The notes under the pieces: generated by a model | The model's database searches: none | Told to the model about the DNA's origin: nothing | What the model saw: the letters and a program-made list of their open reading frames with translations, nothing else | Assembly (NCBI GenBank): GCA_977020255.1 | Contig: CDROCS010006901.1 | Span: 124,001-188,000, forward strand | Reading direction: 5' to 3' | DNA length: 64,000 nucleotides | DNA from: Obrimoposthia wandeli | Lineage: Eukaryota | In this document: positions 23,866-64,000 of the stretch, in pieces | Numbering within the stretch: the first letter of the stretch is position 1 | How the letters are laid out: every line of letters starts with the position of its first letter | Program-made: the position numbers and the translations under genes

Positions 23866-26621
23866 ATTTTCTGTGAGTTATAAATTGCCCTATTAGTAGT
23901 CGAACAAAAGCACAGATAAACGTAACGTCTGATATTTTGACATTACCATTATTTCCTACATACAATTTGATATACTTTTTTATACAGATTTTGGTATAAA
24001 TTAAAATTGTATTGATTAGCAGGTTCTAACCTGATACTTCTTTTGAATGTATTGTAACAGATCAAATTACTGATGATGTAATTTGTGTGTGAATTCTTAG
24101 AAAACGAAGTCATAGTAACAAAGCTCGATGTTAACGAACGACGTGAATGTATTAGTGGATTCTACTGATGATAACCTTGATGTTGCAGATGAGTGGTCGC
24201 GATACACAAGCACTGATGATGGCTGTTGGTGCGGTTGGTGCCGAGGATGTTGCGACAATGACTGACTAATGGTTTCTGGCTGACTCTACCGCTGCTTGTG
24301 TATGGATTTACGACCAATGTCTGTGTATATAACTTTGATTGTCTGTCGGCATACTTTTAATGCCTTGTTGAATTTTTCGTGTTGTAGTACATTAACCATT
24401 TAATTTCAATATAACAATTCTCTTATTATTTAGTTTGAATGCTAATTAAAATATATTTCCCTTCAATTTTAAATAAAGGGATGATTGAATTATTTATAAT
24501 GGAAATTATTTATACTAATTGTTAAATATCCGACAATGTAAGTTAAAATACTTTATAAATTAAATGTATCAAAACATTTGTGTTTTTAATTTGTTTATGA
24601 GTACAACATTTAAAACTTCTGGTTCTTTTTACAATTACGTAGTAATTATAAAAAGAAGAGAAAACTGCTATTATTGTACAGTATATTAATCGTGGTCTAT
24701 ATTCATAGTTAAACAGCTTCAGACAGTTAGAATTGGTAAATTATACGCAAACATGACACTCAAAAGGATTTGTTCCAGCTGCGTATTTAGAAAGATATTT
24801 ATTTAATATCTATTAATTTATTAGTACTAAGTTAAGGTTAAACAAAATATTACTTTTAAATATTTTGATTAAATTATATGAACTGTTACAGAGAAAAGAA
24901 TACGGTTATTTCAATAAATACTTTAATGCAATTGTTAACAAAATATTTTTGCGGTTTTCTAATTGTTTCTTAAACTTTTTCAGATGTCAAATATTAAAAT
25001 TAACTTATTAGACAGTTTTAATTATCTTTGATTATCTATCAACTTCCATCTTAAAACCGGTTAATAAATTTGTTCTTTATATCGGTTTTATATTGTGTAG
25101 TAGAAATTACAACATATTTCTATAAACTTATTATTTACTGTGGACTTATTGTTCTATTCAAGTTTCATAAATAGATAATAATCACCTTATTGAAGTTCCA
25201 AATTATTTTTTTTCAAATTCGACACTTATTTTAAACCTAAGATTTTCGTACTCTGTAAAATTATATCTAACAGCATTTGACAAACTTTTGTAGGATAGGT
25301 ATCATTTTTAGAAATCTCACCATTTTTAATTTCATATAGTTTTTGCTACAAAAAAAGAATTATGATCATAATGCAATTACTGACATTTAGGTATATAATT
25401 ACATAGGATTGGATAATGACGTTGAAGTCAAAAAATTTATATGAAATTGATTTTACAACACTAACATTCAAATTAGTAAAAAAAATAAGTTTCTAACATA
25501 CTTCTATAATATTTTTGTTCTACGTCAGCGACATTAAATAATAAGTAATTTTATTAAAATTATTCTAATTTCGTTGATTATTGAAATGTATTCTAATCCA
25601 AATATATATGTAAAACCAAAAATACTCCAAATTTGGTGTAGAAAAAGTAAATGATTTACAAATTTTAGTATATACAAAAATTGCCTCAAATAATTAGGCA
25701 TTCTAAAATTTAATAAATGCTGTATGGCTGTATTTGTATTTAAACTATTTATATGATAATTTTTAAATAGTAATATAATACTTACATATTCTGACATACA
25801 ACTTTCCCCTTCATAACGAGTTAGACAGATCAATTTACATGAAATTTAGCCTAATCACTCCAAATGTTTTGGTTTGGTAAATTTTCATTCAGCCAACATT
25901 TCATCGAATGCTTCACAAAATTGTTTGATCCAAATCGTACTGAAATAGTCATAAACGAAGAATGTACATTCAAATGCATTCTTTCTAATTGTGCTGTAGG
26001 ATTTATATGCTGAGTTTTGTATTATTTTTCACTCATTGGATGATACACCTACAACCCGTTTGAAAAGTTTTATTTTAGTGTATTCCTCATCCAGTCAACA
26101 TTTTAAAATGAATAATTCCTAAAGCATCTTGTACTCGAATGAATTTTGTTCATCTACCAAGAGATGTCTTTGACAGTAAGTTTTCACTCCACATCTTGAA
26201 TACAACTTCTCTTTTCTAGTTCTGTAGCACTGGTCATAAATTAGTATTAAAAAACAGATAATAAAATCAATTAAGTAATACCTAATTTCTCTGTTTCGAT
26301 TTTGATCAATTCCAAACGTTTTCGAAACCTTTTCGTTAGCTATTTTTCAGAGAATTCAGCCAGTAAGTTTTTCTTCATTGTATATTTTTGTAAATTTTCA
26401 TTTCTTAGACATGATTAATACTTTATTATAAATTGATATTTCATTTTAGTTATCGTTTATAATGCTTCATGCTTATTCATTTATCATGATTAGTAAAGGC
26501 AAAATTATATTATAGTTACAGCTTACACTGATTATTTTTTGTATTATTTTTTAAAAGCTATAATTGGAAGAAATACGGTACTTAGAATTACGTAGAACTT
26601 TTAACGGAAGTGTTGCCTTTA

Positions 26622-26678
26622 ATCCTAATAATTGCCTGAGCTGGCAATCTGATGAGGACAGCAGTCTGAAATTAGGAT
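26622..26678 (+). ncRNA. Type III hammerhead ribozyme (unit 1); predicted cleavage after 26630
   Basis: ATCCTAA-TA-ATTGCC-TGAGCT-GGCAAT-CTGATGA-GGAC-AGCA-GTCT-GAAA-TTAGGAT: stem III 7 bp, AUA triplet, stem I 6 bp, stem II 4 bp, intact CUGAUGA and GAAA cores. Confidence 0.93.
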
Positions 26679-27610
26679 AACCTGGAGTTCGTGTATTATT
26701 ATGGGAGTGAAACCGTTTACAACAGCGGTTCTCAAACTCAGGAACTGTTAGGTTCTATGTGAAGGTAATAAAATTAATTTAATTAAGAAAACTTAAAAAC
26801 GTTCTATGACAGATCTGTTTTTTAAAGAATTGGCACAGAAATGCTGTCACAAGATCTACATGACATTAAAAATGATTTTTTTTAAAACGTTGCAATGTTT
26901 AATATAAAATTATAAATTAAAAACAACTGGTTTATTACTTCAGGTACATATATTAATAGTTATCTTAATTAGAAAGTCAGTGTTACTGTTTGATTCTTTG
27001 CAGCAACCGGGATTTCATATATGCTTTTACCACATTTAACTTTGTTAATACCTATCTGGGTAAAAAGAAAGTCGTTCGTTTGCTTCGGTGTCTCTAGATA
27101 CTGTTGTAACTCTTCATATTTGTCAATACCTGTTTCTGACTGATGAAAGACCCAAAATACATCTACAGATACCTCTAAATTATCTATCATTACATAGTTA
27201 GAGAAATCAAATAGCAAAAGCCCTAAGGTCTTTAATTTCATGAGTTATGTTCTTTTGAAAACGATTATTTACAATTCAAAATTGACATCAATAAAATTAA
27301 TTTAAAAAATTAGGTAAAATATCAATGTTAAGGTCCCAGGCAGCTACATCAGCGTCATCCGTGTGGCTTTTCTTTGTTTGGTAGCACATGAGGTTTAGAA
27401 AATGTCTCAAGAATGGAAACAGTCACTGGATTGGGTTTTTATCGCAATAATGATATTTCATTAAATTTGTTAAAAATTTGTTTTTAAATTCATTATGTAT
27501 TTGGTTAACTCAAGATGTTTCTGTTTAGAAGATATTGTAAAACGGAATTTGTTGAAAGTTTGGTTACGCTATAACCTAGATGGGTCAGATTGTGTCAAGT
27601 TTTACGGGTA

Positions 27611-27773
27611 CGATCTTAGTAAGGACCACTAACTAGAAGTCGATCTTAGTAAGGACCACTAACTAGAAGTCGATCTTAGTAAGGACCACTAACTAGAAGT
27701 CGATCTTAGTAAGGACCACTAACTAGAAGTCGATCTTAGTAAGGACCACTAACTAGAAGTCGATCTTAGTAAG
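27611..27773. repeat. 30-bp VNTR (5 full copies; also 37952-38114 x5, 48281-48473 x6, 58647-58869 x7)
   Basis: Unit CGATCTTAGTAAGGACCACTAACTAGAAGT. Confidence 0.95.
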
Positions 27774-30152
27774 TCGACGTCTAGCTGGTGAAAGTTCATT
27801 AATGATGTGGGTTGCAATATGTGGCAGTAAAAGTCAGATTTGCAATTAGACACAGAAAACTTGAATACAGTGGAGTAATCCTTAGGCGACTGACAAACCT
27901 TCCTTAATAGCCGATTTGCTACTGAAGTGACGTGCCTTTTTAGCGTCGCTCTGGTGTATTTGAACAATATTAACCTAAATCTGGATATTACTGGCATGAC
28001 GTGTTTACAAAAACGGTTGTCAATTTAAATCAAAGAATGAAATTATTGATCAGAAAATATTTATTTATGCTTTGACAGAGATTAGGTATTACAATTTACC
28101 GAAAGCATGACCACATAAAGGCTTTGCTACAAAATATTGTAACGAAATAAATTTATTATTTAGCGTTTCTTGTAACCTGTTAATTTTCTATTTAAATGAT
28201 TTGGTATAATATTTAAATTTTGTTAGAAATCGCTTATTTAATTAAGGGATTTATCTTATAAATTGCACGAAACAAATTGAAATAATGAATTAAATAAGTA
28301 TAATTTATTATGAATCTCGCGGAATTTTTGTTATTTATTACTGTTTGCAACTGATTCGACTGTTGTATAAGAATGATTTATGAAAAGATAAATATTTGAA
28401 ATGTAAGTCTCTAGATTTTACATATAAATACATTGGTGGACATTTCATCTTGAATATATAGCAAAATCGATTGAAATTTTATAAATGTTTTTAAACATAA
28501 TTTAAACCTTTTTAACTCACTGTCATTTGATTGAAATTTGTGTGTGAGTGACAAATCGGGCATCTTCAGATATGCTAATTACAGGAAGTTGGCTCGACTG
28601 GTATATGTGGCCACTCGTGAGACTATTGGGATCCAGACCTCATCAATGGACAATATGGCGGTTCAATCATTTGAGAAGAGTCCATTGCACTTTTAGTGCT
28701 CTAGTTTGAATATACCGACAACTAATAAATTTCTATCTCTAGTCTGACATTTTTAATAAAGAATTATGAAAAGATTGGCACTCTAATTGAGATGTGTACT
28801 TTTTTCAAGCTAACTCTTTTTTGTTTACTTTTAATTTTGGATTTATGTTTCTGAAGTACATCCTAACGACGAACATTTTTTATTTCAATAATATTAGAAC
28901 ATTTCGCTGTGTTGTTGACTGAATAATTTTTTAAATTTTATGCAATTTTATTTAAGTGCTTATTTTTTATTATTTAACTGTTTTTCGGTATACAATTTGT
29001 ATTATTTTAATATAAAAAGCTAATATTTATTTAATATATTTTGTACTCTGGTTGTTCTGTTTTTCAGTGATGTTGTTTAATGAAAATATTCTGATCCTAA
29101 ACAAGTAGAATAAAAGAGCACCATTGTGAAATTCGGGTTAGTCCGATGATCAGGTAAAAAGTTATTCTATAAGTTATGCATTTTTTAGTATAAATATCTA
29201 AACATTTAGTCATTTTAATTAATATTCATTGCGTGTTTTGATATAATTTTTTAAAATATTTTTTAAATTCTCCCCACAGGGGTTGAAATTTTAACAGAAC
29301 TTTTGAAGATTTATCTAATTTGTCTAATAAATGACCTGGTTCTATCTGTACAATCAGCCGATTTATCTTATATTTTTTGATGCGGAGCGATTGAATTAGT
29401 ACTGGTGCACATTGATGTACTATGTTACGAGTAATTTGGTGTTGAAATTACTTGGGTGTCTTTATGGGTTTAATATAGCTGATTTTAAATATTATACATG
29501 TATATTACAATATTTTATTTATCTTCTTATTTACTTTTAAATATTAGATTTTTATTTTATATTTATTCTTATTTAATTTAAATATAGTTTAAACAATTTA
29601 TTACATCAATTTATTCTTCTTAATTACGAAATTAGAATATTTTATTCTATTTCTTTTCAATTTATTATATTATTTCATAAAATATCCTTGTTTAAACGCA
29701 TCATTTATGGGCATCCATGCAGTACCAACGTGGTACCCTTTGCCTGCTAAATATTTTTACAGTGCCTAAAAATATTTTTTGCAGTGCCTAAAATTGACAT
29801 TTCCCATAATTTCTAAAGCCCACATTAACTTTTTAAACTCAATTTTAAATACATTCTTTCCTTTTTACAAAGCCTTCTTTCTGTTCAAATGCAGATTAGG
29901 ATGCTTACTTTCTTGTAAAATTAAATTTAGGTTGCCCACTTTCTTTCGAAAGCTAATTTATGATGTCTACTTTCGGTTAAAATCAAAATTTTATATGCCT
30001 AATTTCTATTAAAATGCAAATTACAATGCCCATTTTATTTTAAAAGGAAATGTACGATGCCCACAATCTCTTTAAATGAATATAACGATGCCCACTTGCT
30101 TTATAAATAATTTGACGATCCCTTCTTCTCTTTTAAAATAAATTTAGATGTC

Positions 30153-30790
30153 CACACTGCACACATGTCACAAAAAGGGACAACCTAACCCTAAAAAACC
30201 CAGAAGATAATAAGTGTTATGAAAACGGTTTTCAAAAACGGATTCCCCGTCACAAATTGTGTACTACTCTAGAATTTCAGTGAAAGAAAATATTATTTAG
30301 TGCCCCAGTGAAAAAATAGGCGTGTAATTTGCATTATGTGATACCTGTGCAGATTATCTTTCAAAGGGATTTTAAGACACTGCTTTCGAAGTTTTAAAAT
30401 GTGTAGAACTTGTTTCTAGACTATTTCAGACACGGGCTACACGCTCATTTTAACGACAACTAAATTTAGTATATTTTTCATGTGTCTATAGGCCTACACT
30501 GCACAATTGTCACAAAAAGGCACAACCTAACCCTAGAAAACCAAGAAGATAATAAGTGTTATGAAAACAGTTTTCAGAAATGGATTCCCCGTGTCACGTT
30601 GTGTTATAATCCAGAGTTTCAGTTAAAGAAAATATTTATAGGTGCCCCGGTGAAAAAATAGGCGTGTAAATTGCATTAACTGGTACATGTGCACATATAT
30701 TTTCAATAGGATTTTGAGACATTGCTTTCGGATTTCTAAATTGTGTCGAACTTAGTTCTAGACTATATCTGTAACGGGCTACATGATGGT
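30153..30790. repeat. ~340-bp imperfect tandem duplication (present in every unit)
   Basis: ACACTGCACA..GTCACAAAAAGG..CAACCTAACCCTA..AAAATAGGCGTGTAA..ACGGGCTACA occurs twice. Confidence 0.85.
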
Positions 30791-30846
30791 GATAAAGAAA
30801 TCAGAAACGAAAACTATCTTAATATTTTATTAGGCATGTATATCAA

Positions 30847-30985
30847 GTCAGCAAAGGTACCACAGGGATAACTGGCTTGTGGCGGCCAAGCATCCATAGC
30901 GACGTCGCTTTTTGATCATTCGATGTCGGCTCTTCCTATCATTGCGAAGCAGAATTCGCAAAGCGTCGGATTGTTCACCCATTAA

Positions 30986-31016
<31 letters not shown>

Positions 31017-31143
31017 AAGACAGGTTAGTTTTACCCTACTATATACATTGTCGTTGTGATGGTAATTCTGCTCAGTACGAGAGGAACCGCAGATTCGGAT
31101 CTCTGGTAAGTGTGCTTGATCGACCGATCAGTGGCACGACACC
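30847..31143 (+). pseudogene. 28S rRNA fragment A (domain V peptidyl-transferase loop to sarcin-ricin loop), unit 1
   Basis: ACCACAGGGATAACTGGCTTGTGGC..TCGATGTCGGCTCTTCCTATCATT..GAGCTGGGTTTAGACCGTCG..AGTACGAGAGGAAC; flanks are not rDNA. Confidence 0.95.
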
Positions 31144-31381
31144 TTCAATTTTTAAAGGCCTCTAACCACTGAAAAACTACTCTACCACTATTGTCCCCCA
31201 CCACACACTTTTGCAACGCTCACAATTACCATAGCCAACTACAACTCATCGAGCCCTACAATTTGCTGCTACTCTCGCTCTAATATACTCACTATTCGCG
31301 AAGTTATGCAATTTAATACCTCAATCTTTTCCGCTAATTTCTCTGCAAATACCCAATCTCATTTTCACTTTTACACTACAG

Positions 31382-31696
31382 TATTAGAATTCAGATTTCG
31401 GCACAAAATAACTACATACTATATCGACTACGGGCTACACGTTGGTGATAACGGTTTACACAACAAAATTCATCTTCGCATTAATCTAGGCCTTGTAATG
31501 GTACAAATGTCATTTTTACCCCTACATACCCTGAAACACCATTAAGACAACAAGTTGGACTGAAACCGTTACGCTAGAACGATTCCCCGTGTTTAGTTAC
31601 ATATTATATCAAATTTCCAACACATACAAAAATTAAGGTGACATTCATGGCACTAGGCAGAAATCACATTGCGTCAAAGCCGGTTACCAGCCGTCG

Positions 31697-31727
<31 letters not shown>

Positions 31728-32058
31728 AATCTAGACCATTCAGTAACCAGTCAAGACTATGGTTGTAAAAATAATTAAAATATTTTCCCTAAGGCATTTA
31801 AAAATTTTTATATCATTTGGAAATTTGATATAATATGTAACTGAACATGGGGAATCGTTCTAGCGTAACGGTTTTAGTCCAACTTGTTGTCTTCCAGGTG
31901 TTTCGGGGTATGTAAGGGGTGAAAATGACATTTGTACCATTAAAAGGCCTATATTAATGTGAATATAATTTCTTTTGGGAAAACGGTTGTCACCATCGTG
32001 TAGCCCGTCGTTGATATGGTATGTAGAGTGTTTTCCAAGAATTTTGATTCTCTAATGA
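31382..32058. repeat. Long imperfect inverted repeat (~250-bp arms, ~165-bp spacer); copies at ~41724-42400, ~52078-52754, ~62471-63147
   Basis: Left arm GACAACAAGTTGGACTGAAACCGTTACGCTAGAACGATTCCCC pairs with right arm GGGGAATCGTTCTAGCGTAACGGTTTTAGTCCAACTTGTTGTC. Confidence 0.92.
31639..31727 (-). pseudogene. 28S rRNA fragment B (domain IV), antisense, unit 1
   Basis: Minus strand AATCCGACTGTCTAATTAAAACAAAGCATTGCGA..TTGACGCAATGTGATTTCTGCC.AGTGC..TGAATGTCA. Confidence 0.9.
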
Positions 32059-32334
32059 TAAATGGGGGAAATATTTCCAACAATATTAGGCCTACAAGAC
32101 AATAGTTAGGAAAACTAATTCCTAAGACCTTTAATAATTTTCATATTTGATAAAACTTTGATACAAGTTTTGAGCGCATTAACTTCATGGGAACTACGTA
32201 GAGAAAGATTTAGGCGTGTAATTTAGATTAAAAAATCGAGTATAGGCATCGCAAAATCTTTTTTAGGTAGGGTACCTGCTAAATTTTGTAAGTGACAATT
32301 TTTTATTTTCCAAATCGAAAATAATTTGGTCGTC

Positions 32335-33540
32335 AAATTTAATTTTTTTAAAAATGTAAAATGTAATTTTTAGGCATCGCATTTTGAAATTTAATTTTTT
32401 TAAAAATGTAAAATGTAGCTTTTAGGCATCGCATTTTGAAATTTAATTTTTAAAAAATGTAAAATGTAGTTTTTAGGCATCGCATTTAGAAATTTATTTT
32501 TGAAAATGTAATTTTTAGGCATCGCATTTTGAAATTTAATTTTTAAAAAATGTAAAATGTAGCTTTTAGGCATCGCATTTTTAAATTTAATTTTTTAAAA
32601 AATGTAAAATGTAGATTTTAGGCATCGCATTTTACGCTACACACTATGTGGCGACGTATCTCTATTTTAGCCAGATAGTTGACAGTTGAAAATGAATCCA
32701 AACTATCATCCGACAGAGAAGCACCACTCATGACGACGTGTATCTCTATTTTAGCCAGATAGTTGACAGTTGAAAATAAATCCAAACTATCATCAAAAAC
32801 TATCCGACAGAGAAGCCGACAATATGTAACTGTACACTTACTGGGGCCACTGACTGACGATAATCTAAGTACAAAGGGATACAACCTCATGTAGATTTTC
32901 CTCAGCCTCAGCTAATGTAATGGAAGATATTCAAGAAAATAGGTAACTGACAGTCTACCAGATAGACATTAGACTACTTTTGTTAATTTTATTTCAAATA
33001 GGCATCGCATTTTGAAAAAAATCGCAAAAATAAACATTTTAGGCATCACAATATGTAAAATAATTCATTCTAGGCATCGCAAAATTTAATTAAATTATTT
33101 TTAAAATGTAAAAATATTTTTTTAGGCATCGCATTTTGAATTTTAAAAAAAATTATATTTTTTAGGCATCGCATTTTGAAATTTATTTTTGAAAATGTAA
33201 TTTTTAGGCATCGCATTTTGAAATTTAATTTTTAAAAAATGTAAAATGTAGCTTTTAGGCATCGCATTTTTAAATTTAATTTTTTAAAAAATGTAAAATG
33301 TAGCTTTTAGGCACCGCATTTTTAAATTTAATTATTAAAAAATGTAAAATGTAGCTTTTAGGCATCGCATTTTTAAATTTAATTTTTTAAAAAATGTAAA
33401 ATGTAGCTTTTAGGCACCGCATTTTTAAATTAAATTTTTAAAAAATGTAAAATGTAGCTTTTAGGCATCGCATTTTGAAATTTAATTTTTTAAAAAATGT
33501 AAAATGTAGTTTTTAGGCATTGCATTTTGAAATTTAATTT
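32335..33540. repeat. ~50-bp AT-rich satellite (TTTTAGGCATCGCATTTT core) in two blocks split by a ~350-bp island with an 83-bp duplication; present in every unit
   Basis: Repeated TTTTAGGCATCGCATTTTGAAATTTAATTTTTAAAAAATGTAAAATGTAG; copy number differs between units. Confidence 0.93.
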
Positions 33541-35139
33541 TGAGAGTTGTATTTTGTATCATCTCTTTTAGAATTTTTTTTCGCTTTTATCTTTCCACAC
33601 AAACACTTTGGCGAATTTAGACATACAAATTCGGAATCAGTGAACGATTTTACGTTTGAAATATTCTAAGATTTTAAAATTGGTGCAAAAAATATTTTTA
33701 GCAATTTTTCTGAATTTTTAGAAATCCAGAACTTTGTTTGCAAATATCTCCCCACACAAATCTCGTAGAATTTTTAGACATACATATTCGGAATCAGGGA
33801 ACAATTCTACATCTGAAAAATGCTAAGATTTTAAGAATTGTGAATTTTATTTTAATCAATTTTTCAGGTATTACACGCTTTTTTATACTTTTCTCTGGAG
33901 ATATGCTACCATTAGCAAAACCACACACATATTCTTTCTCCTCTAAGCAAGACGGAAGTTTTCATACCCTGTTGTTGAAATTGGGACAAAAAAATGTTAG
34001 ATGCCTATTTTGGTGAGTTTCAGAGAAAATTCACTTTTACTCAGATTTCTCAAGGAGGACAGTACCATTCTTGAATCTAAAATTATATCCGTACTCACCT
34101 CACCGAGACGCGTCTTTTGATGGTGCTTCCGATCAGTTTGGTGCAATATAGAATTAAATTGTAAAATTGAATTTTCTAATATTAAAATATTGCATTCAAT
34201 GTTTCTTTCACGAATTTCTTTCTCAATATTGCGAATTAAAGAAAACTAAGCACACCATAATTTTTTTCAGAATTTTTAACACCAGAAAGATATAAAAGAT
34301 ATTTTATTCGAGCAAAGTACAGTTTTAAGCAAATATCTTAATTCCAAGAATCGAGATTTTCGATTACGAATAAATCGACAAATACTAAACCAATTTAGAA
34401 AGTAAACACAGATTCAGAAGTTTCTCGGCGAAACTTAATTTTGTATTCTATTTTCAGAATTTCTCTAAGAGCATTTACGTTTTTAGAAATCCAGGTACAT
34501 GCACTGACATGTAACCTTATCGCGAATATCTCGGCGAATATTGGGAATCCACAAAAGTCGGGTACGTATTCTTGCTCGTCTTGATGCGACAGAATTTTGG
34601 ATAATTTTCTGCACTTCAACAGATGCATATTAGAGAAGATAGCTAAATTGAGCACCGTTCTATAATATAAGGCAATTTCCATTTCCTTTATGACTCCGCG
34701 AATATCGAGAGTCGAGCAAAGTAAGTTACATATTCGTTGTCCTCTAATTGAGACGGAATTTCTGAAGCTACTTGCGAAAGGTTTGGGGGCATATTAGAGG
34801 ATTCGGAAAAAGATGGCTATTTAAATGCTTTGTCTTTGTTTTAAAAAGCGACTTTATATCGCTAATATCTCGTCACACAGAATTTTCATCGCAAAACCAA
34901 ATACATATTCTTGCTCGCAGTAATTTTCCGCCCCAGAAACCTACAGAAACCGGCACTTGAAGTTTCACACAATTTTTATTGTATTCACGGAAAAGCTCGA
35001 ATATCTGGGCACCCGGTGCACCAATGTGCACCAAAACACCCTCAAAACACTCGTAATCGAGCCCCCGAATTTCCACAACCAACTATTCATTTTAGTATCC
35101 ATTACCCACAAACACTCTCCTTGTTTCAATACCCCCTCT

Positions 35140-35470
35140 CCCATGAAATCGACGGCCACTTTTGCGGATCTCACTTGGGATTCGCCTACACGCCAGCGAT
35201 CGCACTGCAGAACGCTGTGTCGTGTATGCGCTCCAGATCTGGGATCCGCCCCGCACGAGGCGCGAGAGAGGAGCCGAAGCCGCCCAGTGTCCGGCAACAG
35301 AAGATTTGTCGGCGCCCGGCTCTCGGTCTCGCTCTCCGGCCGAAAATTCACCCAAAACGTCACTACACACCACCACCATCATTTAGCCACCAACAACGGA
35401 AATCAGCACCCACCGCTGTACTGCTCCCTATCTCCATCGCCCCCAAATTTAGCACGCAAAAGGTCTCCGA
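35140..35470. other. GC/CpG-rich island at the end of each unit (also ~45468-45798, ~55835-56165)
   Basis: Visibly GC-rich stretch with many CpG in otherwise very AT-rich DNA. Confidence 0.7.
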
Positions 35471-41325: not shown

Positions 41326-41356
<31 letters not shown>

Positions 41357-41980: not shown

Positions 41981-42038
41981 TGACATTCATGGCACTAGGC
42001 AGAAATCACATTGCGTCAAAGCCGGTTACCAGCCGTCG

Positions 42039-51680: not shown

Positions 51681-51711
<31 letters not shown>

Positions 51712-51838
51712 AAGACAGGTTAGTTTTACCCTACTATATACATTGTCGTTGTGATGGTAATTCTGCTCAGTACGAGAGGAACCGCAGATTCGGATCTCTG
51801 GTAAGTGTGCTTGATCGACCGATCAGTGGCACGACACC
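51542..51838 (+). pseudogene. 28S rRNA fragment A, unit 3
   Basis: Same as unit 1. Confidence 0.95.
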
Positions 51839-52334
51839 TTCAATTTTTTAAAGGCCTCTAACCACTGAAAAACTACTCTACCACTATTGTCCCCCACCAC
51901 ACACTTTTGCAACGCTCACAATTACCATAGCCAACTACAACTCATCGAGCCCTACAATTTGCTGCTACTCTCGCTCTAATATACTCACTATTCGCGAAGT
52001 TATGCAATTTAATACCTCAATCTTTTCCGCTAATTTCTCTGCAAATACCCAATCTCATTTTCACTTTTACACTACAGTATTAGAATTCAGATTTCGGCAC
52101 AAAATAACTACATACTATATCGACTACGGGCTACACGTTGGTGATAACGGTTTACACAACAAAATTCATCTTCGCATTAATCTAGGCCTTGTAATGGTAC
52201 AAATGTCATTTTTACCCCTACATACCCTGAAACACCATTAAGACAACAAGTTGGACTGAAACCGTTACGCTAGAACGATTCCCCGTGTTTAGTTACATAT
52301 TATATCAAATTTCCAACACATACAAAAATTAAGG

Positions 52335-52392
52335 TGACATTCATGGCACTAGGCAGAAATCACATTGCGTCAAAGCCGGTTACCAGCCGTCG

Positions 52393-52423
<31 letters not shown>
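52335..52423 (-). pseudogene. 28S rRNA fragment B, unit 3
   Basis: Same as unit 1. Confidence 0.9.
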
Positions 52424-55400
52424 AATCTAGACCATTCAGTAACCAGTCAAGACTATGGTTGTAAAAATAATTAAAATATTTTCCCTAAGGCATTTAAAAA
52501 TTTTTATATCATTTGGAAATTTGATATAATATGTAACTGAACATGGGGAATCGTTCTAGCGTAACGGTTTTAGTCCAACTTGTTGTCTTCCAGGTGTTTC
52601 GGGGTATGTAAGGGGTGAAAATGACATTTGTACCATTAAAAGGCCTATATTAATGTGAATATAATTTCTTTTGGGAAAACGGTTGTCACCATCGTGTAGC
52701 CCGTCGTTGATATGGTATGTAGAGTGTTTTCCAAGAATTTTGATTCTCTAATGATAAATGGGGGAAATATTTCCAACAATATTAGGCCTACAAGACAATA
52801 GTTAGGAAAACTAATTCCTAAGACCTTTAATAATTTTCATATTTGATAAAACTTTGATACAAGTTTTGAGCGCATTAACTTCATGGGAACTACGTAGAGA
52901 AAGATTTAGGCGTGTAATTTAGATTAAAAAATCGAGTATAGGCATCGCAAAATCTTTTTTAGGTAGGGTACCTGCTAAATTTTGTAAGTGACAATTTTTT
53001 ATTTTCCAAATCGAAAATAATTTGGTCGTCAAATTTAATTTTTTTAAAAATGTAAAATGTAATTTTTAGGCATCGCATTTTGAAATTTAATTTTTTTAAA
53101 AATGTAAAATGTAGCTTTTAGGCATCGCATTTTGAAATTTAATTTTTAAAAAATGTAAAATGTAGTTTTTAGGCATCGCATTTAGAAATTTATTTTTGAA
53201 AATGTAATTTTTAGGCATCGCATTTTGAAATTTAATTTTTAAAAAATGTAAAATGTAGCTTTTAGGCATCGCATTTTACGCTACACACTATGTGGCGACG
53301 TATCTCTATTTTAGCCAGATAGTTGACAGTTGAAAATGAATCCAAACTATCATCCGACAGAGAAGCACCACTCATGACGACGTGTATCTCTATTTTAGCC
53401 AGATAGTTGACAGTTGAAAATAAATCCAAACTATCATCAAAAACTATCCGACAGAGAAGCCGACAATATGTAACTGTACACTTACTGGGGCCACTGACTG
53501 ACGATAATCTAAGTACAAAGGGATACAACCTCATGTAGATTTTCCTCAGCCTCAGCTAATGTAATGGAAGATATTCAAGAAAATAGGTAACTGACAGTCT
53601 ACCAGATAGACATTAGACTACTTTTGTTAATTTTATTTCAAATAGGCATCGCATTTTGAAAAAAATCGCAAAAATAAACATTTTAGGCATCACAATATGT
53701 AAAATAATTCATTCTAGGCATCGCAAAATTTAATTAAATTATTTTTAAAATGTAAAAATATTTTTTTAGGCATCGCATTTTGAATTTTAAAAAAAATTAT
53801 ATTTTTTAGGCATCGCATTTTGAAATTTATTTTTGAAAATGTAATTTTTAGGCATCGCATTTTGAAATTTAATTTTTAAAAAATGTAAAATGTAGCTTTT
53901 AGGCATCGCATTTTTAAATTTAATTTTTTAAAAATGTAAAATGTAGCTTTTAGGCACCGCATTTTTAAATTTAATTATTAAAAAATGTAAAATGTAGCTT
54001 TTAGGCATCGCATTTTGAAATTTAATTTTTTAAAAAATGTAAAATGTAGCTTTTAGGCATCGCATTTTTAAATTTAATTTTTTAAAAAATGTAAAATGTA
54101 GCTTTTAGGCACCGCATTTTTAAATTAAATTTTTAAAAAATGTAAAATGTAGCTTTTAGGCATCGCATTTTGAAATTTAATTTTTTAAAAAATGTAAAAT
54201 GTAGTTTTTAGGCATTGCATTTTGAAATTTAATTTTGAGAGTTGTATTTTGTATCATCTCTTTTAGAATTTTTTTTCGCTTTTATCTTTCCACACAAACA
54301 CTTTGGCGAATTTAGACATACAAATTCGGAATCAGTGAACGATTTTACGTTTGAAATATTCTAAGATTTTAAAATTGGTGCAAAAAATATTTTTAGCAAT
54401 TTTTCTGAATTTTTAGAAATCCAGAACTTTGTTTGCAAATATCTCCCCACACAAATCTCGTAGAATTTTTAGACATACATATTCGGAATCAGGGAACAAT
54501 TCTACATCTGAAAAATGCTAAGATTTTAAGAATTGTGAATTTTATTTTAATCAATTTTTCAGGTATTACACGCTTTTTTATACTTTTCTCTGGAGATATG
54601 CTACCATTAGCAAAACCACACACATATTCTTTCTCCTCTAAGCAAGACGGAAGTTTTCATACCCTGTTGTTGAAATTGGGACAAAAAAATGTTAGATGCC
54701 TATTTTGGTGAGTTTCAGAGAAAATTCACTTTTACTCAGATTTCTCAAGGAGGACAGTACCATTCTTGAATCTAAAATTATATCCGTACTCACCTCACCG
54801 AGACGCGTCTTTTGATGGTGCTTCCGATCAGTTTGGTGCAATATAGAATTAAATTGTAAAATTGAATTTTCTAATATTAAAATATTGCATTCAATGTTTC
54901 TTTCACGAATTTCTTTCTCAATATTGCGAATTAAAGAAAACTAAGCACACCATAATTTTTTTCAGAATTTTTAACACCAGAAAGATATAAAAGATATTTT
55001 ATTCGAGCAAAGTACAGTTTTAAGCAAATATCTTAATTCCAAGAATCGAGATTTTCGATTACGAATAAATCGACAAATACTAAACCAATTTAGAAAGTAA
55101 ACACAGATTCAGAAGTTTCTCGGCGAAACTTAATTTTGTATTCTATTTTCAGAATTTCTCTAAGAGCATTTACGTTTTTAGAAATCCAGGTACATGCACT
55201 GACATGTAACCTTATCGCGAATATCTCGGCGAATATTGGGAATCCACAAAAGTCGGGTACGTATTCTTGCTCGTCTTGATGCGACAGAATTTTGGATAAT
55301 TTTCTGCACTTCAACAGATGCATATTAGAGAAGATAGCTAAATTGAGCACCGTTCTATAATATAAGGCAATTTCCATTTCCTTTATGACTCCGCGAATAT

Positions 55401-57657
55401 CGAGAGTCGAGCAAAGTAAGTTACATATTCGTTGTCCTCTAATTGAGACGGAATTTCTGAAGCTACTTGCGAAAGGTTTGGGGGCATATTAGAGGATTCG
55501 GAAAAAGATGGCTATTTAAATGCTTTGTCTTTGTTTTAAAAAGCGACTTTATATCGCTAATATCTCGTCACACAGAATTTTCATCGCAAAACCAAATACA
55601 TATTCTTGCTCGCAGTAATTTTCCGCCCCAGAAACCTACAGAAACCGGCACTTGAAGTTTCACACAATTTTTATTGTATTCACGGAAAAGCTCGAATATC
55701 TCCGCACCCGGTGCACCAATGTGCACCAAAACACCCTCAAAACACTCGTAATCGAGCCCCCGAATTTCCACAACCAACTATTCATTTTAGTATCCATTAC
55801 CCACAAACACTCTCCTTGTTTCAATACCCCCTCTCCCATGAAATCGACGGCCACTTTTGCGGATCTCACTTGGGATTCGCCTACACGCCAGCGATCGCAC
55901 TGCAGAACGCTGTGTCGTGTATGCGCTCCAGATCTGGGATCCGCCCCGCACGAGGCGCGAGAGAGGAGCCGAAGCCGCCCAGTGTCCGGCAACAGAAGAT
56001 TTGTCGGCGCCCGGCTCTCGGTCTCGCTCTCCGGCCGAAAATTCACCCAAAACGTCACTACACACCACCACCATCATTTAGCCACCAACAACGGAAATCA
56101 GCACCCACCGCTGTACTGCTCCCTATCTCCATCGCCCCCAAATTTAGCACGCAAAAGGTCTCCGAAAACATTACCCCACTTTCACTTTCCATGCCCAAAC
56201 TTATTGAAGTTCCAAATTATTTTTTTTCAAATTCGACACTATTATTTTAAACCAATGTAAACCAGCAAAGATTTTCGTACTCTGTAAAATTATATCTAAC
56301 AGCATTTGACAAACTTTTGTAGGATAGGTATCATTTTTAGAAATCTCACACCATTTTTAATTTCATATAGTTTTTGCTACAAAAAAAGAATTATGATCAT
56401 AATGCAATTACTGACATTTAGGTATATAATTACATAGGATTGGATAATGACGTTGAAGTCAAAAAATTTATATGAAATTGATTTTACAACACTAACATTC
56501 AAATTAGTAAAAAAAATAAGTTTCTAACATACTTCTATAATATTTTTGTTCTACGTCAGCGACATTAAATAAAATAATAAGTAATTTTATTAAAATTATT
56601 CTAATTTCGTTGGTTATTGAAATGTATTCTAATCCAAATATATATGTAAAACCAAAAATACTCCCAATTTGGTGTAGAAAAAGTAAATGATTTACAAATT
56701 TTAGTATATACAAAAATTGCCTCAAATAATTAGGCATTCTAAAATTTAATAAATGCTGTATGGCTGTATTTGTATTTAAACTATTTATATGATAATTTTT
56801 AAATAGTAATATAATACTTACATATTCTGACATACAACTTTCCCCTTTATAACGAGTTAGACAGATCAATTTACATGAAATTTAGCCTAATCACTCCAAA
56901 TGTTTTGGTTTGGTAAATTTTCATTCAGCCAACATTTCATCGAATGCTTCACAAAATTGTTTGATCCAAATCGTACTGAAATAGTCATAAACGAAGAATG
57001 TACATTCAAATGCATTCTTTCTAATTGTGCTGTAGGATTTATATGCTGAGTTTTGTATTATTTTTCACTCATTGGATGATACACCTACAACCCGTTTGAA
57101 AAGTTTTATTTTAGTGTATTCCTCATCCAGTCAACATTTTAAAATGAATAATTCCTAAAGCATCTTGTACTCGAATGAATTTTGTTCATCTACCAAGAGA
57201 TGTCTTTGACAGTAAGTTTTCACTCCACATCTTGAATACAACTTCTCTTTTCTAGTTCTGTAGCACTGGTCATAAATTAGTATTGAAAAACAGATAATAA
57301 AATCAATTAAGTAATACCTAATTTCTCTGTTTCGATTTTGATCAATTCCAAACGTTTTCGAAACCTTTTCGTTAGCTATTTTTCAGAGAATTCAGCCAGT
57401 AAGTTTTTCTTCATTGTATATTTTTGTAAATTTTCATTTCTTAGACATGATTAATACTTTATTATAAATTGATATTTCATTTTAGTTATCGTTTATAATG
57501 CTTCATGCTTATTCATTTATCATGATTAGTAAAGGCAAAATTATATTATAGTTACAGCTTACACTGATTATTTTTTGTATTATTTTTTAAAAGCTATAAT
57601 TGGAAGAAATACGGTACTTAGAATTACGTAGAACTTTTAACGGAAGTGTTGCCTTTA

Positions 57658-57714
57658 ATCCTAATAATTGCCTGAGCTGGCAATCTGATGAGGACAGCAG
57701 TCTGAAATTAGGAT
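57658..57714 (+). ncRNA. Type III hammerhead ribozyme (unit 4)
   Basis: Identical to the unit-1 motif. Confidence 0.93.
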
Positions 57715-60700
57715 AACCTGGAGTTCGTGTATTATTATGGGAGTGAAACCGTTTACAACAGCGGTTCTCAAACTCAGGAACTGTTAGGTTCTATGTGAAG
57801 GTAATAAAATTAATTTAATTAAGAAAACTTAAAAACGTTCTATGACAGATCTGTTTTTTAAAGAATTGGCACAGAAATGCTGTCACAAGATCTACATGAC
57901 ATTAAAAATGATTTTTTTTAAAACGTTGCAATGTTTAATATAAAATTATAAATTAAAAACAACTGGTTTATTACTTCAGGTACATATATTAATAGTTATC
58001 TTAATTAGAAAGTCAGTGTTACTGTTTGATTCTTTGCAGCAACCGGGATTTCATATATGCTTTTACCACATTTAACTTTGTTAATACCTATCTGGGTAAA
58101 AAAGAAAGTCGTTCGTTTGCTTCGGTGTCTCTAGATACTGTTGTAACTCTTCATATTTGTCAATACCTGTTTCTGACTGATGAAAGACCCAAAATACATC
58201 TACAGATACCTCTAAATTATCTATCATTACATAGTTAGAGAAATCAAATAGCAAAAGCCCTAAGGTCTTTAATTTCATGAGTTATGTTCTTTTGAAAACG
58301 ATTATTTACAATTCAAAATTGACATCAATAAAATTAATTTAAAAAATTAGGTAAAATATCAATGTTAAGGTCCCAGGCAGCTACATCAGCGTCATCCGTG
58401 TGGCTTTTCTTTGTTTGGTAGCACATGAGGTTTAGAAAATGTCTCAAGAATGGAAACAGTCACTGGATTGGTTTTTATCGCAATAATGATATTTCATTAA
58501 ATTTGTTAAAAATTTGTTTTTAAATTCATTATGTATTTGGTTAACTCAAGATGTTTCTGTTTAGAAGATATTGTAAAACGGAATTTGTTGAAAGTTTGGT
58601 TACGCTATAACCTAGATGGGTCAGATTGTGTCAAGTTTTACGGGTACGATCTTAGTAAGGACCACTAACTAGAAGTCGATCTTAGTAAGGACCACTAACT
58701 AGAAGTCGATCTTAGTAAGGACCACTAACTAGAAGTCGATCTTAGTAAGGACCACTAACTAGAAGTCGATCTTAGTAAGGACCACTAACTAGAAGTCGAT
58801 CTTAGTAAGGACCACTAACTAGAAGTCGATCTTAGTAAGGACCACTAACTAGAAGTCGATCTTAGTAAGTCGACGTCTAGCTGGTGAAAGTTCATTAATG
58901 ATGTGGGTTGCAATATGTGGCAGTAAAAGTCAGATTTGCAATTAGACACAGAAAACTTGAATACAGTGGAGTAATCCTTAGGCGACTGACAAACCTTCCT
59001 TAATAGCCGATTTGCTACTGAAGTGACGTGCCTTTTAGCGTCGCTCTGGTGTATTTGAACAATATTAACCTAAATCTGGATATTACTGGCATGACGTGTT
59101 TACAAAAACGGTTGTCAATTTAAATCAAAGAATGAAATTATTGATCAGAAAATATTTATTTATGCTTTGACAGAGATTAGGTATTACAATTTACCGAAAG
59201 CATGACCACATAAAGGCTTTGCTACAAAATATTGTAACGAAATAAATTTATTATTTAGCGTTTCTTGTAACCTGTTAATTTTCTATTTAAATGATTTGGT
59301 ATAATATTTAAATTTTGTTAGAAATCGCTTATTTAATTAAGGGATTTATCTTATAAATTGCACGAAACAAATTGAAATAATGAATTAAATAAGTATAATT
59401 TATTATGAATCTCATGGAATTTTTGTTATTTATTACTGTTTGCAACTGATTCGACTGTTGTATAAGAATGATTTATGAAAAGATAAATATTTGAAATGTA
59501 AGTCTCTAGATTTTACATATAAATACATTGGTGGACATTTCATCTTGAATATATAGCAAAATCGATTGAAATTTTATAAATGTTTTTAAACATAATTTAA
59601 ACCTTTTTAACTCACTGTCATTTGATTGAAATTTGTGTGTGAGTGACAAATCGGGCATCTTCAGATATGCTAATTACAGGAAGTTGGCTCGACTGGTATA
59701 TGTGGCCACTCGTGAGACTATTGGGATCCAGACCTCATCAATGGACAATATGGCGGTTCAATCATTTGAGAAGAGTCCATTGCACTTTTTAGTGCTCTAG
59801 TTTGAATATACCGACAACTAATAAATTTCTATCTCTAGTCTGACATTTTTAATAAAGAATTATGAAAAGATTGGCACTCTAATTGAGATGTGTACTTTTT
59901 CAAGCTAACTCTTTTTGTTTACTTTTAATTTTGGATTTATGTTTCTGAAGTACAGCCTAACGACTAACATTTTTTATTTCAATAATATTAGAACATTTCG
60001 CTGTGTTGTTGACTGAATAATTTTTTAAATTTTTTGCAATTTTTTTTAGGTGCTTTTTTTTTTTTTTTTACTGTTTTTCGGTATACAATTTGTATTATTT
60101 TAATATAAAAAGCTAATATTTATTTAATATATTTTGTACTCTGGTTGTTCTGTTTTTTCAGTGATGTTGTTTAATGAAAATATTCTGATCCTAAACAAGT
60201 AGAATAAAAGAGCACCATTGTGAAATTCGGGTTAGTCCGATGATCAGGTAAAAAGTTATTCTATAAGTTATGCATTTTTTAGTATAAATATCTAAACATT
60301 TAGTCATTTTAATTAATATTCATTGCGTGTTTTGATATAATTTTTTAAAATATTTTTTAAATTCTCACAGGGGTTGAAATTTTAACAGAACTTTTTGAAG
60401 ATTTATCTAATTTGTCTAATAAATGACCTGGTTCTATCTGTACAATCAGCCGATTTATCTTATATTTTTTGATGCGGAGCGATTGAATTAGTACTGGTGC
60501 ACATTGATGTACTATGTTACGAGTAATTTGGTGTTGAAATTACTTGGGTGTCTTTATGGGTTTAATATAGCTGATTTTAAATATTATACATGTATATTAC
60601 AATATTTTATTTATCTTCTTATTTACTTTTTAAATATTAGATTTTTATTTTATATTTATTCTTATTTAATTTAAATATAGTTTAAACAATTTATTACATC

Positions 60701-61936
60701 AATTTATTCTTCTTAATTACGAAATTAGAATATTTTATTCTATTTCTTTTCAATTTATTATATTATTTCATAAAATATCCTTGTTTAAACGCATCATTTA
60801 TGGGCATCCATGCAGTACCAACGTGGTACCCTTTGCCTGCTAAATATTTTTACAGTGCCTAAAAATATTTTTTGCAGTGCCTAAAATTGACATTTCCCAT
60901 AATTTCTAAAGCCCACATTAACTTTTTAAACTCAATTTTAAATACATTCTTTCCTTTTTACAAAGCCTTCTTTCTGTTCTAATGCATAGTATGATGCGTG
61001 CTGGCTTGTAAAATTAAATTTAGGTTGCCCACTTTCTTTCGAAAGCTAATTTATGATGTCTACTTTCGGTTAAAATCAAAATTTTATATGCCTAATTTCT
61101 ATTAAAATGCAAATTACAATGCCCATTTTATTTTAAAAGGAAATGTACGATGCCCACAATCTCTTTAAAATGAATATAACGATGCCCACTTGCTTTATAA
61201 ATAATTTGACGATCCCTTCTTCTCTTTAAAATAAATTTAGATGTCCACACTGCACAAATGTCACAAAAAGGGACAACCTAACCCTAAAAACCCAGAAGAT
61301 AATAAGTGTTATGAAAACGGTTTTCAAAAACGGATTCCCGTCACAAATTGTGTACTACTTAGAATTTCAGTGAAAGAAAATATTATTTAGTGCCCCAGTG
61401 AAAAAATAGGCGTGTAATTTGCATTATGTGATACCTGTGCAGATTATCTTTCAAAGGGATTTTAAGACACTGCTTTCGAAGTTTTAAAATGTGTAGAACT
61501 TGTTTCTAGACTATTTCAGACACGGGCTACACGCTCATTTTAACGACAACTAAATTTAGTATATTTTTTCATGTGTCTATAGGCCTACACTGCACAATTG
61601 TCACAAAAGGCACAACCTAACCCTAGAAAACCAAGAAGATAATAAGTGTTATGAAAACAGTTTTCAGAAATGGATTCCCCGTGTCACGTTGTGTTATAAT
61701 CCAGAGTTTCAGTTAAAGAAAATATTTATAGGTGCCCCGGTGAAAAAATAGGCGTGTAAATTGCATTAACTGGTACATGTGCACATATATTTTCAATAGG
61801 ATTTTGAGACATTGCTTTCGGATTTCTAAATTGTGTCGAACTTAGTTCTAGACTATATCTGTAACGGGCTACATGATGGTGATAAAGAAATCAGAAACGA
61901 AAACTATCTTAATATTTTATTAGGCATGTATATCAA

Positions 61937-62075
61937 GTCAGCAAAGGTACCACAGGGATAACTGGCTTGTGGCGGCCAAGCATCCATAGCGACGTCGCTT
62001 TTTGATCATTCGATGTCGGCTCTTCCTATCATTGCGAAGCAGAATTCGCAAAGCGTCGGATTGTTCACCCATTAA

Positions 62076-62106
<31 letters not shown>

Positions 62107-62233
62107 AAGACAGGTTAGTTTTACCCTACTATATACATTGTCGTTGTGATGGTAATTCTGCTCAGTACGAGAGGAACCGCAGATTCGGATCTCTGGTAAG
62201 TGTGCTTGATCGACCGATCAGTGGCACGACACC
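61937..62233 (+). pseudogene. 28S rRNA fragment A, unit 4
   Basis: Same as unit 1. Confidence 0.95.
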
Positions 62234-62727
62234 TTCAATTTTTAAAGGCCTCTAACCACTGAAAAACTACTCTACCACTATTGTCCCCACCACACACTTT
62301 TGCAACGCTCACAATTACCATAGCCAACTACAACTCATCGAGCCCTACAATTTGCTGCTACTCTCGCTCTAATATACTCACTATTCGCGAAGTTATGCAA
62401 TTTAATACCTCAATCTTTTCCGCTAATTTCTCTGCAAATACCCAATCTCATTTTCACTTTTACACTACAGTATTAGAATTCAGATTTCGGCACAACATAT
62501 CTACATACTATATCGACGACGGGCTACACGTTGGTGATAACGGTTTACACAACAAAATTCATCTTCGCATTAATCTAGGCCTTGTAATGGTACAAATGTC
62601 ATTTTTACCCCTACATACCCTGAAACACCATTAAGACAACAAGTTGGACTGAAACCGTTACGCTAGAACGATTCCCCGTGTTTAGTTACATATTATATCA
62701 AATTTCCACAACATATAAAAATTAAGG

Positions 62728-62785
62728 TGACATTCATGGCACTAGGCAGAAATCACATTGCGTCAAAGCCGGTTACCAGCCGTCG

Positions 62786-62816
<31 letters not shown>
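62728..62816 (-). pseudogene. 28S rRNA fragment B, unit 4
   Basis: Same as unit 1. Confidence 0.9.
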
Positions 62817-64000
62817 AATCTAGACCATTCAGTAACCAGTCAAGACTATGGTTGTAAAAATAATTAAAATATTTTCCCAAAGGCATTTAATAAATTTTAT
62901 ATAATTTGGAAATTTGATATAATATGTAACTGAACATGGGGAATCGTTCTAGCGTAACGGTTTTAGTCCAACTTGTTGTCTTCCAGGTGTTTCGGGGTAT
63001 GTAGGGGTTGAAAATGACATTTGTACCATTACAAGGCCTATATTAATGTGAATATAATTTCTTTTGTGAAAACGGTTGTCACCATCGTGTAGCCCGTCGT
63101 CGATATAGTATGTAGAGTGTTTTCCAAGAAATTTGATTCTCTAATGATAAGGAGGGAAAATATTTCCAACAATATTAGGCCTACAAGACAATAGTTAGGA
63201 AAACTAATTCCTAAGACCTTTAATAATTTTCATATTTGATAAAACTTTGATACAAGTTTTGAGCGCATTAACTTCATGGGAACTACGTAGAGAAAGATTT
63301 AGGCGTGTAATTTAGATTAAAAAATCGAGTATAGGCATCGCAAAATCTTTTAGGTAGGGTACCTGCTAAATTTTGTAAGTGACAATTTTTATTTTCCAAA
63401 TCGAAAATAATTTGGTCGTCAAATTTAATTTTTAAAAAATGTAAAATGTCATTTTTAGGCATCGCATTTTGAAATTTAATTTTTAAAAATGTAAAATGTA
63501 TTTTTTAGGCATCGCATTTTGAAATTTAAATTTTAAAAAATGTAAAATGTCATTTTTAGGCATCGCATTTTGAAATTTAATTTTTTAAATGTCATTTTTA
63601 GGCATCGCATTTTTGAATTTAATTTTTAAAAAATGTAGTATGTAGCGTTTGTGCATAACATTTTAAATTTAATTTTTTAAAAAATGTAAAATGTAGATTT
63701 TAGGCATCGCATTTTACGCTACACACTATGTGGCGACGTATCTCTATTTTAGCCAGATAGTTGACAGTTGAAAATGAATCCAAACTATCATCCGACAGAG
63801 AAGCACCACTCATGACGACGTGTATCTCTATTTTAGCTGATAGTTGACAGTTGAAAATAAATCCAAACTATCATCAAAAACTATCCGACAGAGAAGCCGA
63901 CAATATGTAACTGTACACTTACTGGGGCCACTGACTGACGATAATCTAAGTACAAAGGGATACAACCTCATGTAGATTTTCCTCAGCCTCAGCTAATGTA

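Follow-up and report, generated by a model that had tools for sequence, protein, structure and literature searches.

A 10.3-kb tandem repeat behind a putative TDP-43 gene of Obrimoposthia wandeli, probably a young macrosatellite with a hammerhead motif and 28S pieces

What kind of sequence repeats every 10.3 kb just behind a putative TDP-43 gene of the flatworm Obrimoposthia wandeli, and how did it come to be multiplied? The question is raised by a stretch of 64,000 nucleotides of contig CDROCS010006901.1 (NCBI GenBank assembly GCA_977020255.1, positions 124,001 to 188,000 of the forward strand), hereafter called the window and numbered from its first letter. Its right-hand part consists of tandem units, each combining a hammerhead ribozyme motif with two pieces of 28S rRNA, as well as the long hairpin and the several satellites of the original prediction, both of which are confirmed. 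Our analysis suggests that the array is probably a young macrosatellite, that is, a nested tandem repeat in which an old patchwork of repeats has recently been amplified as a block.

Self-BLAST of the window reveals a head-to-tail array running from 25186 to the window end, with copies at offsets of about 10.3, 20.6 and 31.0 kb, all starting at 25186, and with 97.7–98.4% identity between the offset copies when gaps are counted. At least 3.75 tandem units had been expected to begin 1.3 kb past the TDP-43 stop, and three whole units and a partial fourth are indeed present from 1,321 bp past the stop onwards (Table 1). Multi-kb, head-to-tail and highly similar units, by which a macrosatellite is recognized, are what the array is made of. 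Each unit starts with an AT-rich head carrying a stop-poor minus-strand frame, followed by the hammerhead, a 30-bp variable number tandem repeat (VNTR), repeats of about 31 bp and a 342-bp dimer; after the dimer come 28S piece A, the hairpin with piece B in its loop, two 51-bp arrays, repeats of 158–170 bp and a GC-rich tail.

The junction between the tail of one unit and the head of the next is identical in all three instances and differs from the junction between flank and array. The left boundary of the array is sharp, with zero bases common to the flank end and the unit tail. Base composition passes smoothly from the flank into the unit head and jumps abruptly at the tail-head junction. 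A nine-base sequence that crosses the unit junction is found again at 25124, 62 bp before unit 1 begins; the control for this recurrence is weak, its 2,000 draws amounting to only about 41 independent windows. From this recurrence, a microhomology origin of the unit junction is possible. The continuity of composition and the nine-base recurrence would fit a local origin of the unit head, of which neither is a proof. The same left edge carries CTTATT three times within 65 bp (25124–25192).

Masking of the internal repeats removes about 3.3 kb from the comparison; among the sites that remain, units 2 and 3 show 2 differences in 7,052, units 1 and 3 show 6 in 7,028, units 1 and 2 show 8 in 7,033, and unit 4 differs from the other units at 13–17 of about 5,100. 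Four of the six differences between units 1 and 3 lie in the first 630 bp of unit 1. Such divergence is expected at an edge where exchange between units cannot reach the unique flank, and the best reading is that the edge of the first unit escaped homogenisation. Because the divergence among the parts within a unit far exceeds that between units, the block appears to have been amplified or homogenised long after its parts came together.

The original prediction took both VNTR counts and unit-specific substitutions as proof of real copies; the counts of 5, 5, 6 and 7 stand as such evidence, whereas the substitutions are weak. Homopolymer runs of at least three bases contain 27 of the 34 one-base indels between units. 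Of the 26 unit-private changes in the hairpin arms, 18 reproduce the opposite arm at sites that are scattered, a pattern that consensus mixing between paralogues or very short gene conversions would produce, and 10 of the 13 private substitutions of unit 4 outside repeats fall within 160 T-rich bases. Most of the unit-specific substitutions and one-nucleotide indels look like consensus error or paralogue mixing. An indel-prone consensus is also suggested by the long terminal repeat (LTR) element in the left part of the window, where the frames of reverse transcriptase and RNase H are split despite identical LTR pieces. Unit-specific variants in this assembly are thus partly unreliable. Better evidence for real copies is provided by the new junction, the three VNTR lengths in four units and the private multi-base gaps of unit 1. 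It is very likely that at least one tandem pair is real, and the assembled copy number may differ from the true one.

As had been noticed earlier, no transposase or reverse transcriptase can be recognized in the unit. Pfam gives no credible family in any of the 130 stop-free frames of at least 33 amino acids (aa) of unit 2 (10 weak matches, E 0.036–0.1, all below the cut-off) nor any family in the 24 six-frame read-through segments, and no Rep or helicase trace is found by Pfam in unit frames or segments. The minus-strand frame in the unit head is stop-poor when compared with shuffles (9 and 16 of 1,000) and could possibly be a decayed open reading frame. It has no homologue at E ≤ 0.01 among 1,464 candidates (lengths 195–623 aa only), no match in Pfam or PDB sequences and no usable ESM Atlas hit. 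For the adjoining frame, a full-library search gives one weak match, to an unnamed protein of 4,472 aa (K/E/L-rich residues 14–71, E 2.7e-5). Fragments of Tc1/mariner, pogo, piggyBac or hAT, suspected by eye in the unit head from their motifs, are unsupported by Pfam, PDB sequences, homologue search and ESM Atlas. For an hAT-like terminal motif at 26723, a scan allowing 4 mismatches finds no inverted partner, and the motif also pairs inside a local RNA fold.

The ends of known mobile elements are likewise not seen. Helitrons carry TC at the 5' end and, at the 3' end, a hairpin with CTRR behind it. A scan of both strands of unit 2 finds no GC-rich hairpin with CTRR, the sole hit being the hammerhead stem, and TC/CTRR is absent from the unit junction. 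Helentron-type elements would have short subterminal inverted repeats and a TT target; general inverted-repeat scans, none of them aimed at Helentron ends, show nothing at the junction. An inverted-repeat pair with target duplication at the outer ends is not found in the unit scan, and the 25 kb left of the array contain no unit fragments (one hit, E 0.005, 75% over 71 AT-rich bases). With no CTRR end, no such pair, no left-flank copies and retrozymes 10–70 times shorter than the unit, the suggestion of a non-autonomous element amplified by rolling circle or through RNA receives no positive support.

The age layers, the edge effect, the repeated junction, the VNTR counts and the lack of both a protein family and transposon-type ends lead us to favour a young macrosatellite. 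Blocks of nested tandem repeats longer than 1 Mb, described for planarian (Schmidtea) assemblies in the accessible part of PMC11410931, support this reading. Judging from the spread of internal divergences, a non-coding stretch may slowly have acquired its satellites and an inverted duplication, together with two scraps of 28S, a fragment bearing the hammerhead and perhaps an open reading frame that has since decayed. In a single rearrangement, the GC-rich tail would then have become fused to the DNA lying shortly behind TDP-43, with either a tandem duplicate or an excised circle as the product. Subsequently, the copy number would rise and the inner units would be kept near-identical, either through unequal exchange or because the circle or its multimer re-integrates; the first ~630 bp, which adjoin unique DNA, remain distinct, and slippage alters the VNTRs. 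The pattern of this last step is seen in the units and its mechanism is what we infer. The best explanation is that the unit encodes no machinery of its own, and that the ribozyme and the 28S pieces are passengers.

Several points weigh against a macrosatellite made of relics. A near-intact hammerhead in a closed fold of ~165 nt is more than very old junk would predict. TAGGCA-type motifs flip in orientation across the central module, being nearly all on the minus strand to its left and all on the plus strand to its right (Table 1), and oppositely pointing motifs also occur at the ends of some DNA transposons. The patchwork itself would be deduced from divergence, no module being identified as a named transposon. 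Finally, a mobile 10-kb unit is possible, as the window shows neither the right end of the array nor the rest of the genome.

Table 1. Coordinates of the array, of the parts of its unit and of the neighbouring gene (parts of the unit are given for unit 1, plus strand, unless stated otherwise)
Feature	Position	Strand	Remarks
Unit 1	25186..35504	.	10,319 bp; self-comparison
Unit 2	35505..45832	.	10,328 bp; self-comparison
Unit 3	45833..56199	.	10,367 bp; self-comparison
Unit 4, partial (window end)	56200..64000	.	7,801 bp; most of the private changes are here
Diverged edge of unit 1	25186..25812	.	4 private substitutions and private gaps of 2, 13, 2 and 5 bp; units 2-4 agree there
Stop-poor frame in unit head	35682..36752 (unit 2 coordinates)	-	stop-free codons 103, 167, 167, 125 in units 1-4
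Type III hammerhead motif	26622..26678	+	stems of 6, 4 and 8 bp; AUA triplet; predicted cut after 26630
Identical hammerhead copies	36962-37018, 47291-47347, 57658-57714	+	descriptor
30-bp VNTR	27611..27773	.	copies 100% alike; full copies 5, 5, 6, 7 in units 1-4
Degenerate ~31-bp repeats with TAGGCA-type motif	29700..30160	-	motif 8 minus, 1 plus
342-bp dimer	30138..30837	+	84% by BLAST over 289 bp; global alignment 268/343 columns
28S piece A	30847..31139	+	Rfam model ~2805-3096, peptidyl-transferase region to sarcin-ricin loop; changes at conserved sites
Left hairpin arm	31383..31634	+	diverged relative of 342-bp repeat
28S piece B	31639..31727	-	model ~2131-2219; inverted, in hairpin loop
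Right hairpin arm	31803..32062	-	184/212 core columns match left arm
Two ~51-bp satellite arrays with TAGGCATC motif	32240..33541	+	motif 20 plus, 0 minus; copy number differs among units
Degenerate 158-170-bp repeats	33575..34845	+	
GC-rich tail	34900..35504	.	52% GC, core 60%; C-rich on plus strand; sharp end at unit junction
Putative TDP-43 gene, neighbour outside the repeat	22038..23865	+	stop 23865

The ribozyme expected in the unit is found by descriptor as a type III hammerhead, once per unit and on the same strand in all four units, although Rfam hammerhead models do not report the motif even at E ≤ 10 over 201 bases. The predicted motif has the conserved core, an NUH triplet and three stems, of which stem III is open. 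When the unit is shuffled 2,000 times with its dinucleotides preserved, no shuffle equals the motif, by a threshold that had been set to the observed stem lengths, and 5 of the 2,000 give any minimal motif. It folds as expected, with a folding z of only -1.1 when taken alone, and it lies inside the closed fold of about 165 nt mentioned above (z -3.5, boundaries chosen after the fold was seen). The loops could pair, GCU with AGC, as judged by eye. The pair at the base of stem II is G-U; the closing pair of this stem in hammerheads is usually G-C. By descriptor there is no type I hammerhead motif in the window, and no internal direct repeat is found around the hammerhead.

In animal genomes, as far as the accessible parts of the sources tell, hammerheads are mostly of type I and reside in repeats of 150–450 bp (PMC7229834, PMC7761336, PMC6155905, bioRxiv 10.64898/2026.07.22.740005), and those of type III are typical of plant LTR retrozymes, insects and bacteria being mentioned as well (the same sources and PMC4918200). 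Our literature search, which reached neither most subscription papers nor Repbase, returned no description of a type III hammerhead in planarians, nor of this repeat. For an animal, the predicted type III ribozyme is the only unusual part of the unit, pointing to a family of ribozyme-bearing repeats in triclads that is as yet undescribed. The predicted cut is located 2,765 bp past the TDP-43 stop on the same strand. The DNA from that stop to the array contains three AATAAA hexamers, so that the TDP-43 mRNA probably ends before the predicted cut. The ribozyme motif is probably a passenger in the unit.

That the macro-repeat is not ribosomal DNA (rDNA), as proposed originally, agrees with Rfam at gathering threshold, which gives a single large-subunit (LSU) rRNA match per unit, namely piece A, and neither small-subunit (SSU) rRNA nor 5.8S. 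The second of the two 28S pieces already noted, piece B, is seen only in a narrow search (minus strand, E 3.5e-15). The 45S rDNA layout, with 18S, 5.8S and full 28S in order, is not present in the unit; of the 3,401 positions of the LSU model only about 380 are represented, in opposite orientations, and piece A ends ~300 model positions before the 28S end. Because 8 changes at Rfam upper-case (highly conserved) positions are counted by eye in ~186 nt (~4%), piece A is probably a pseudogene piece, the alternative being an origin from a divergent rDNA type of the host. Piece A matches two 28S probes of Schmidtea mediterranea, each 40 nt long and taken from the accessible part of PMC6884822 (supplement 1), at 39 and 38 positions by eye. 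An Rfam-type search of 27780–30160 and 33500–35600 shows no further rRNA pieces or RNA families, and no tRNA is found in the unit search. Positions 29671–29800 resemble, in inverted form, the beginning of piece A together with the motif upstream of it, at 1 of 1,000 shuffles in a comparison that was chosen post hoc.

The hairpin is 690 nt long and near-perfect. The relation of its arms to the 342-bp repeat is detectable only by profile (E 1e-8 to 1e-5). Transversions make up 15 of the 27 arm mismatches, and arm transitions giving G-U number 9 on the plus strand versus 3, a difference that is not significant (p 0.15). If the arms were the terminal inverted repeats of a DNA transposon, MITE or Pack-MULE, a target duplication would be expected around them; a scan shows none flanking their outer ends, although old duplications decay. 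Outside the hairpin, no general excess of RNA structure is found along the unit. The best of 272 windows of 150 nt reaches a z of -3.6, on the minus strand of 31111–31400, a C-rich and G-poor stretch after piece A. The 342-bp repeat contains about 1.5 TTAGGG-like telomeric units on the minus strand by eye (30188–30198, 30529–30540) and the 51-bp satellite contains TTAGGC; these telomere-like bits are probably due to chance. Between the two 51-bp satellite arrays a direct duplication of ~70 bp is visible by eye (32659–32815).

The tail, formerly described as a CpG-rich island, is a GC-rich patch (52–60%) in which CpG is not enriched, the observed-to-expected ratio being 1.11–1.16 there versus 1.02–1.06 elsewhere in the unit, in the LTR element and in the 3' flank. 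Upstream of TDP-43 the ratio is 0.74. Most of the window shows no CpG depletion; 5-methylcytosine is reported to be absent from planarians. Similarity between the tail and the C-rich stretch after piece A is not significant (19 of 300 shuffles as good), and G-quadruplex scores are unremarkable (best 1.52, tail 1.40). Two overlapping plus-strand stop-free frames of 249 and 210 aa (45194–45943 and 45252–45884) run across tail and junction; they have no Pfam match, and only ~7 stops per 200 codons are expected there.

We consider it unlikely that the unit is a Helitron- or Helentron-like rolling-circle element, or another non-autonomous DNA element, which captured 28S pieces and became tandem on insertion. 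Its size, captured fragments and internal satellites would fit such an element, as would the sharp left boundary, and the accessible part of PMC6431247 describes Helitrons that capture host fragments and reach 14–39 kb; however, the lack of the hairpin-CTRR end, of TC/CTRR at the junction and of any Rep or helicase trace speaks against it. An assembly artefact, in which one or two real copies were inflated or haplotypes were stitched in tandem, is quite unlikely. The homopolymer indels, the arm copying, the clustered substitutions of unit 4 and the split frame of the LTR element all point that way, but the tail-head junction must derive from reads, three VNTR lengths occur in four units, the multi-base gaps of unit 1 are not homopolymer errors, and the scattered arm-to-arm changes could also stem from genuine gene conversion over short tracts. 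A degenerate rDNA unit or derivative of an rDNA spacer, with the satellites as spacer subrepeats, would account for the two 28S pieces, for the rDNA-like unit size and for the spacer-like order of 28S 3' piece, repeats and GC-rich patch. Given the scant LSU coverage in opposite orientations, the missing SSU and 5.8S and the early end of piece A, we regard it as highly improbable.

The remaining explanations assign a function to the RNA. If the hammerhead were active, the unit could be a functional RNA module, yielding a 10-kb ribozyme-processed circular RNA in the manner of a giant retrozyme; or the ribozyme, ~2.8 kb behind the TDP-43 stop, could cut read-through transcripts and so shield the gene and the array mutually, with small RNAs arising from the hairpin and the antisense 28S piece in its loop. 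We hold this to be very unlikely. Its retrozyme version, with transcripts cut once per unit and the 10.3-kb circle copied back by a helper reverse transcriptase, for example of the neighbouring gypsy family, merits hardly any credence. In its favour, one identical hammerhead per unit lies on the same strand in all four units; the gypsy element lies within the window, and type III motifs accompany gypsy-dependent plant retrozymes in the accessible part of PMC4918200. However, the retrozymes described in the accessible parts of PMC7229834 and PMC4918200 measure 150–1,000 nt, the array starts with CT instead of TG, and neither a primer-binding site (PBS) nor a polypurine tract (PPT) is visible by eye at the junction. 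The G-U at the stem II base and the lack of general RNA structure outside the hairpin also count against it, and a cDNA of more than 38 kb seems implausible. Neither the features of a plant-type LTR retrozyme (hammerhead in LTRs, PBS, PPT, 4-bp target duplication, RNA of 600–1,000 nt) nor those of an animal non-LTR retrozyme (type I hammerhead, tandem units of 150–450 bp) are what the unit displays. A selected small-RNA locus, as a source of hairpin small interfering RNAs or of Piwi-interacting RNAs (piRNAs) against a repeat family or rRNA, appears extremely improbable, and would be compatible with a macrosatellite. The near-perfect hairpin and the excess of G-U on the plus strand suggest it, and 43% of the SMEDWI-2 piRNAs of S. 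mediterranea fall in genomic sequence that carries no annotation (PMC8532177, accessible part); but the G-U bias is not significant, transversions are frequent among the mismatches, and any inverted repeat folds well. A young macrosatellite is the reading that we prefer to all of these.

The gene to the left of the array is a putative TDP-43. For its exon 1 the named relatives are cestode and trematode proteins (46–52% identity), and two unnamed proteins reach 61–64%. Named relatives match the last exon weakly (E 0.28–1.1), and the 3' exons are predicted from splice-like sites and weak tblastn matches only. The putative protein is divergent, with a CAG/CAA glutamine tract near 23211–23250. Further left, a Burro-like giant gypsy element occupies positions 1–17767 of the window on the minus strand, with gag including a zinc knuckle, a BIR domain, two aspartyl-protease domains, RING, reverse transcriptase, RNase H and integrase, and with a fusion glycoprotein domain of Monjiviricetes (mononegavirus) type between gag and pol. 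Its layout matches that given for planarian Burro elements in the accessible part of PMC6431247. This layout, the relatives of TDP-43 exon 1 and the matches of the Schmidtea probes to piece A make it likely that the host is a triclad, a planarian. The LTR pieces of the element show no difference in the 403 bp visible, and it appears to be a recent insertion; reverse transcriptase and RNase H are split across frames. Its non-coding leader contains tandem arrays with periods of 109, 49/99, 36 and 46 bp (14207–16767), and two frames of 353 and 125 aa at its 3' end (398–1837, minus strand) have no Pfam match.

Nested tandem blocks in Schmidtea assemblies (PMC11410931) and rDNA scraps in repeats (PMC10946416) are already known from the accessible parts of these sources. 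As a macrosatellite, the array would be a modest addition, an example of how a planarian nested repeat block may start directly after a gene of essential type. If circles of unit length existed, or TDP-43 transcripts terminated by the ribozyme, they would be new biology; a giant retrozyme would be larger than those known by a factor of at least ten, and its ribozyme would be of plant type although the host is a flatworm.

Compared with known systems, again as far as the accessible parts of the cited sources describe them, the unit shares single features with several mobile elements. Retrozymes, both the plant LTR type with a type III hammerhead (PMC4918200) and the animal non-LTR type with a type I hammerhead (PMC7229834, bioRxiv 10.64898/2026.07.22.740005), are also non-coding tandem repeats with one hammerhead per unit; however, the present unit is 10 to 70 times longer, carries a type III motif in an animal and shows no LTR, PBS or PPT. 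Non-autonomous Helitrons (PMC6431247) have the same size range and captured host fragments, whereas no canonical 3' hairpin-CTRR end is found here. Transposons with rDNA pieces, such as SINE28 and Pokey with its spacer repeats (PMC10946416), similarly hold 28S-derived sequence within a repeat, but here two internal 28S pieces lie in opposite orientation and no anatomy of a short interspersed nuclear element (SINE) or piggyBac is seen. The nested tandem blocks of Schmidtea (PMC11410931), likened here by description and not by unit sequence, have a nested tandem structure too and would come from the same animal group.

The human large-unit tandem repeats D4Z4 and DXZ4 are macrosatellites. Like them, the array has multi-kb head-to-tail units, near-identical inner copies, a divergent edge, nested VNTRs and a GC-rich patch; in contrast to them, its unit of 10.3 kb is AT-rich, has no identified gene and carries 28S scraps and a hammerhead motif.

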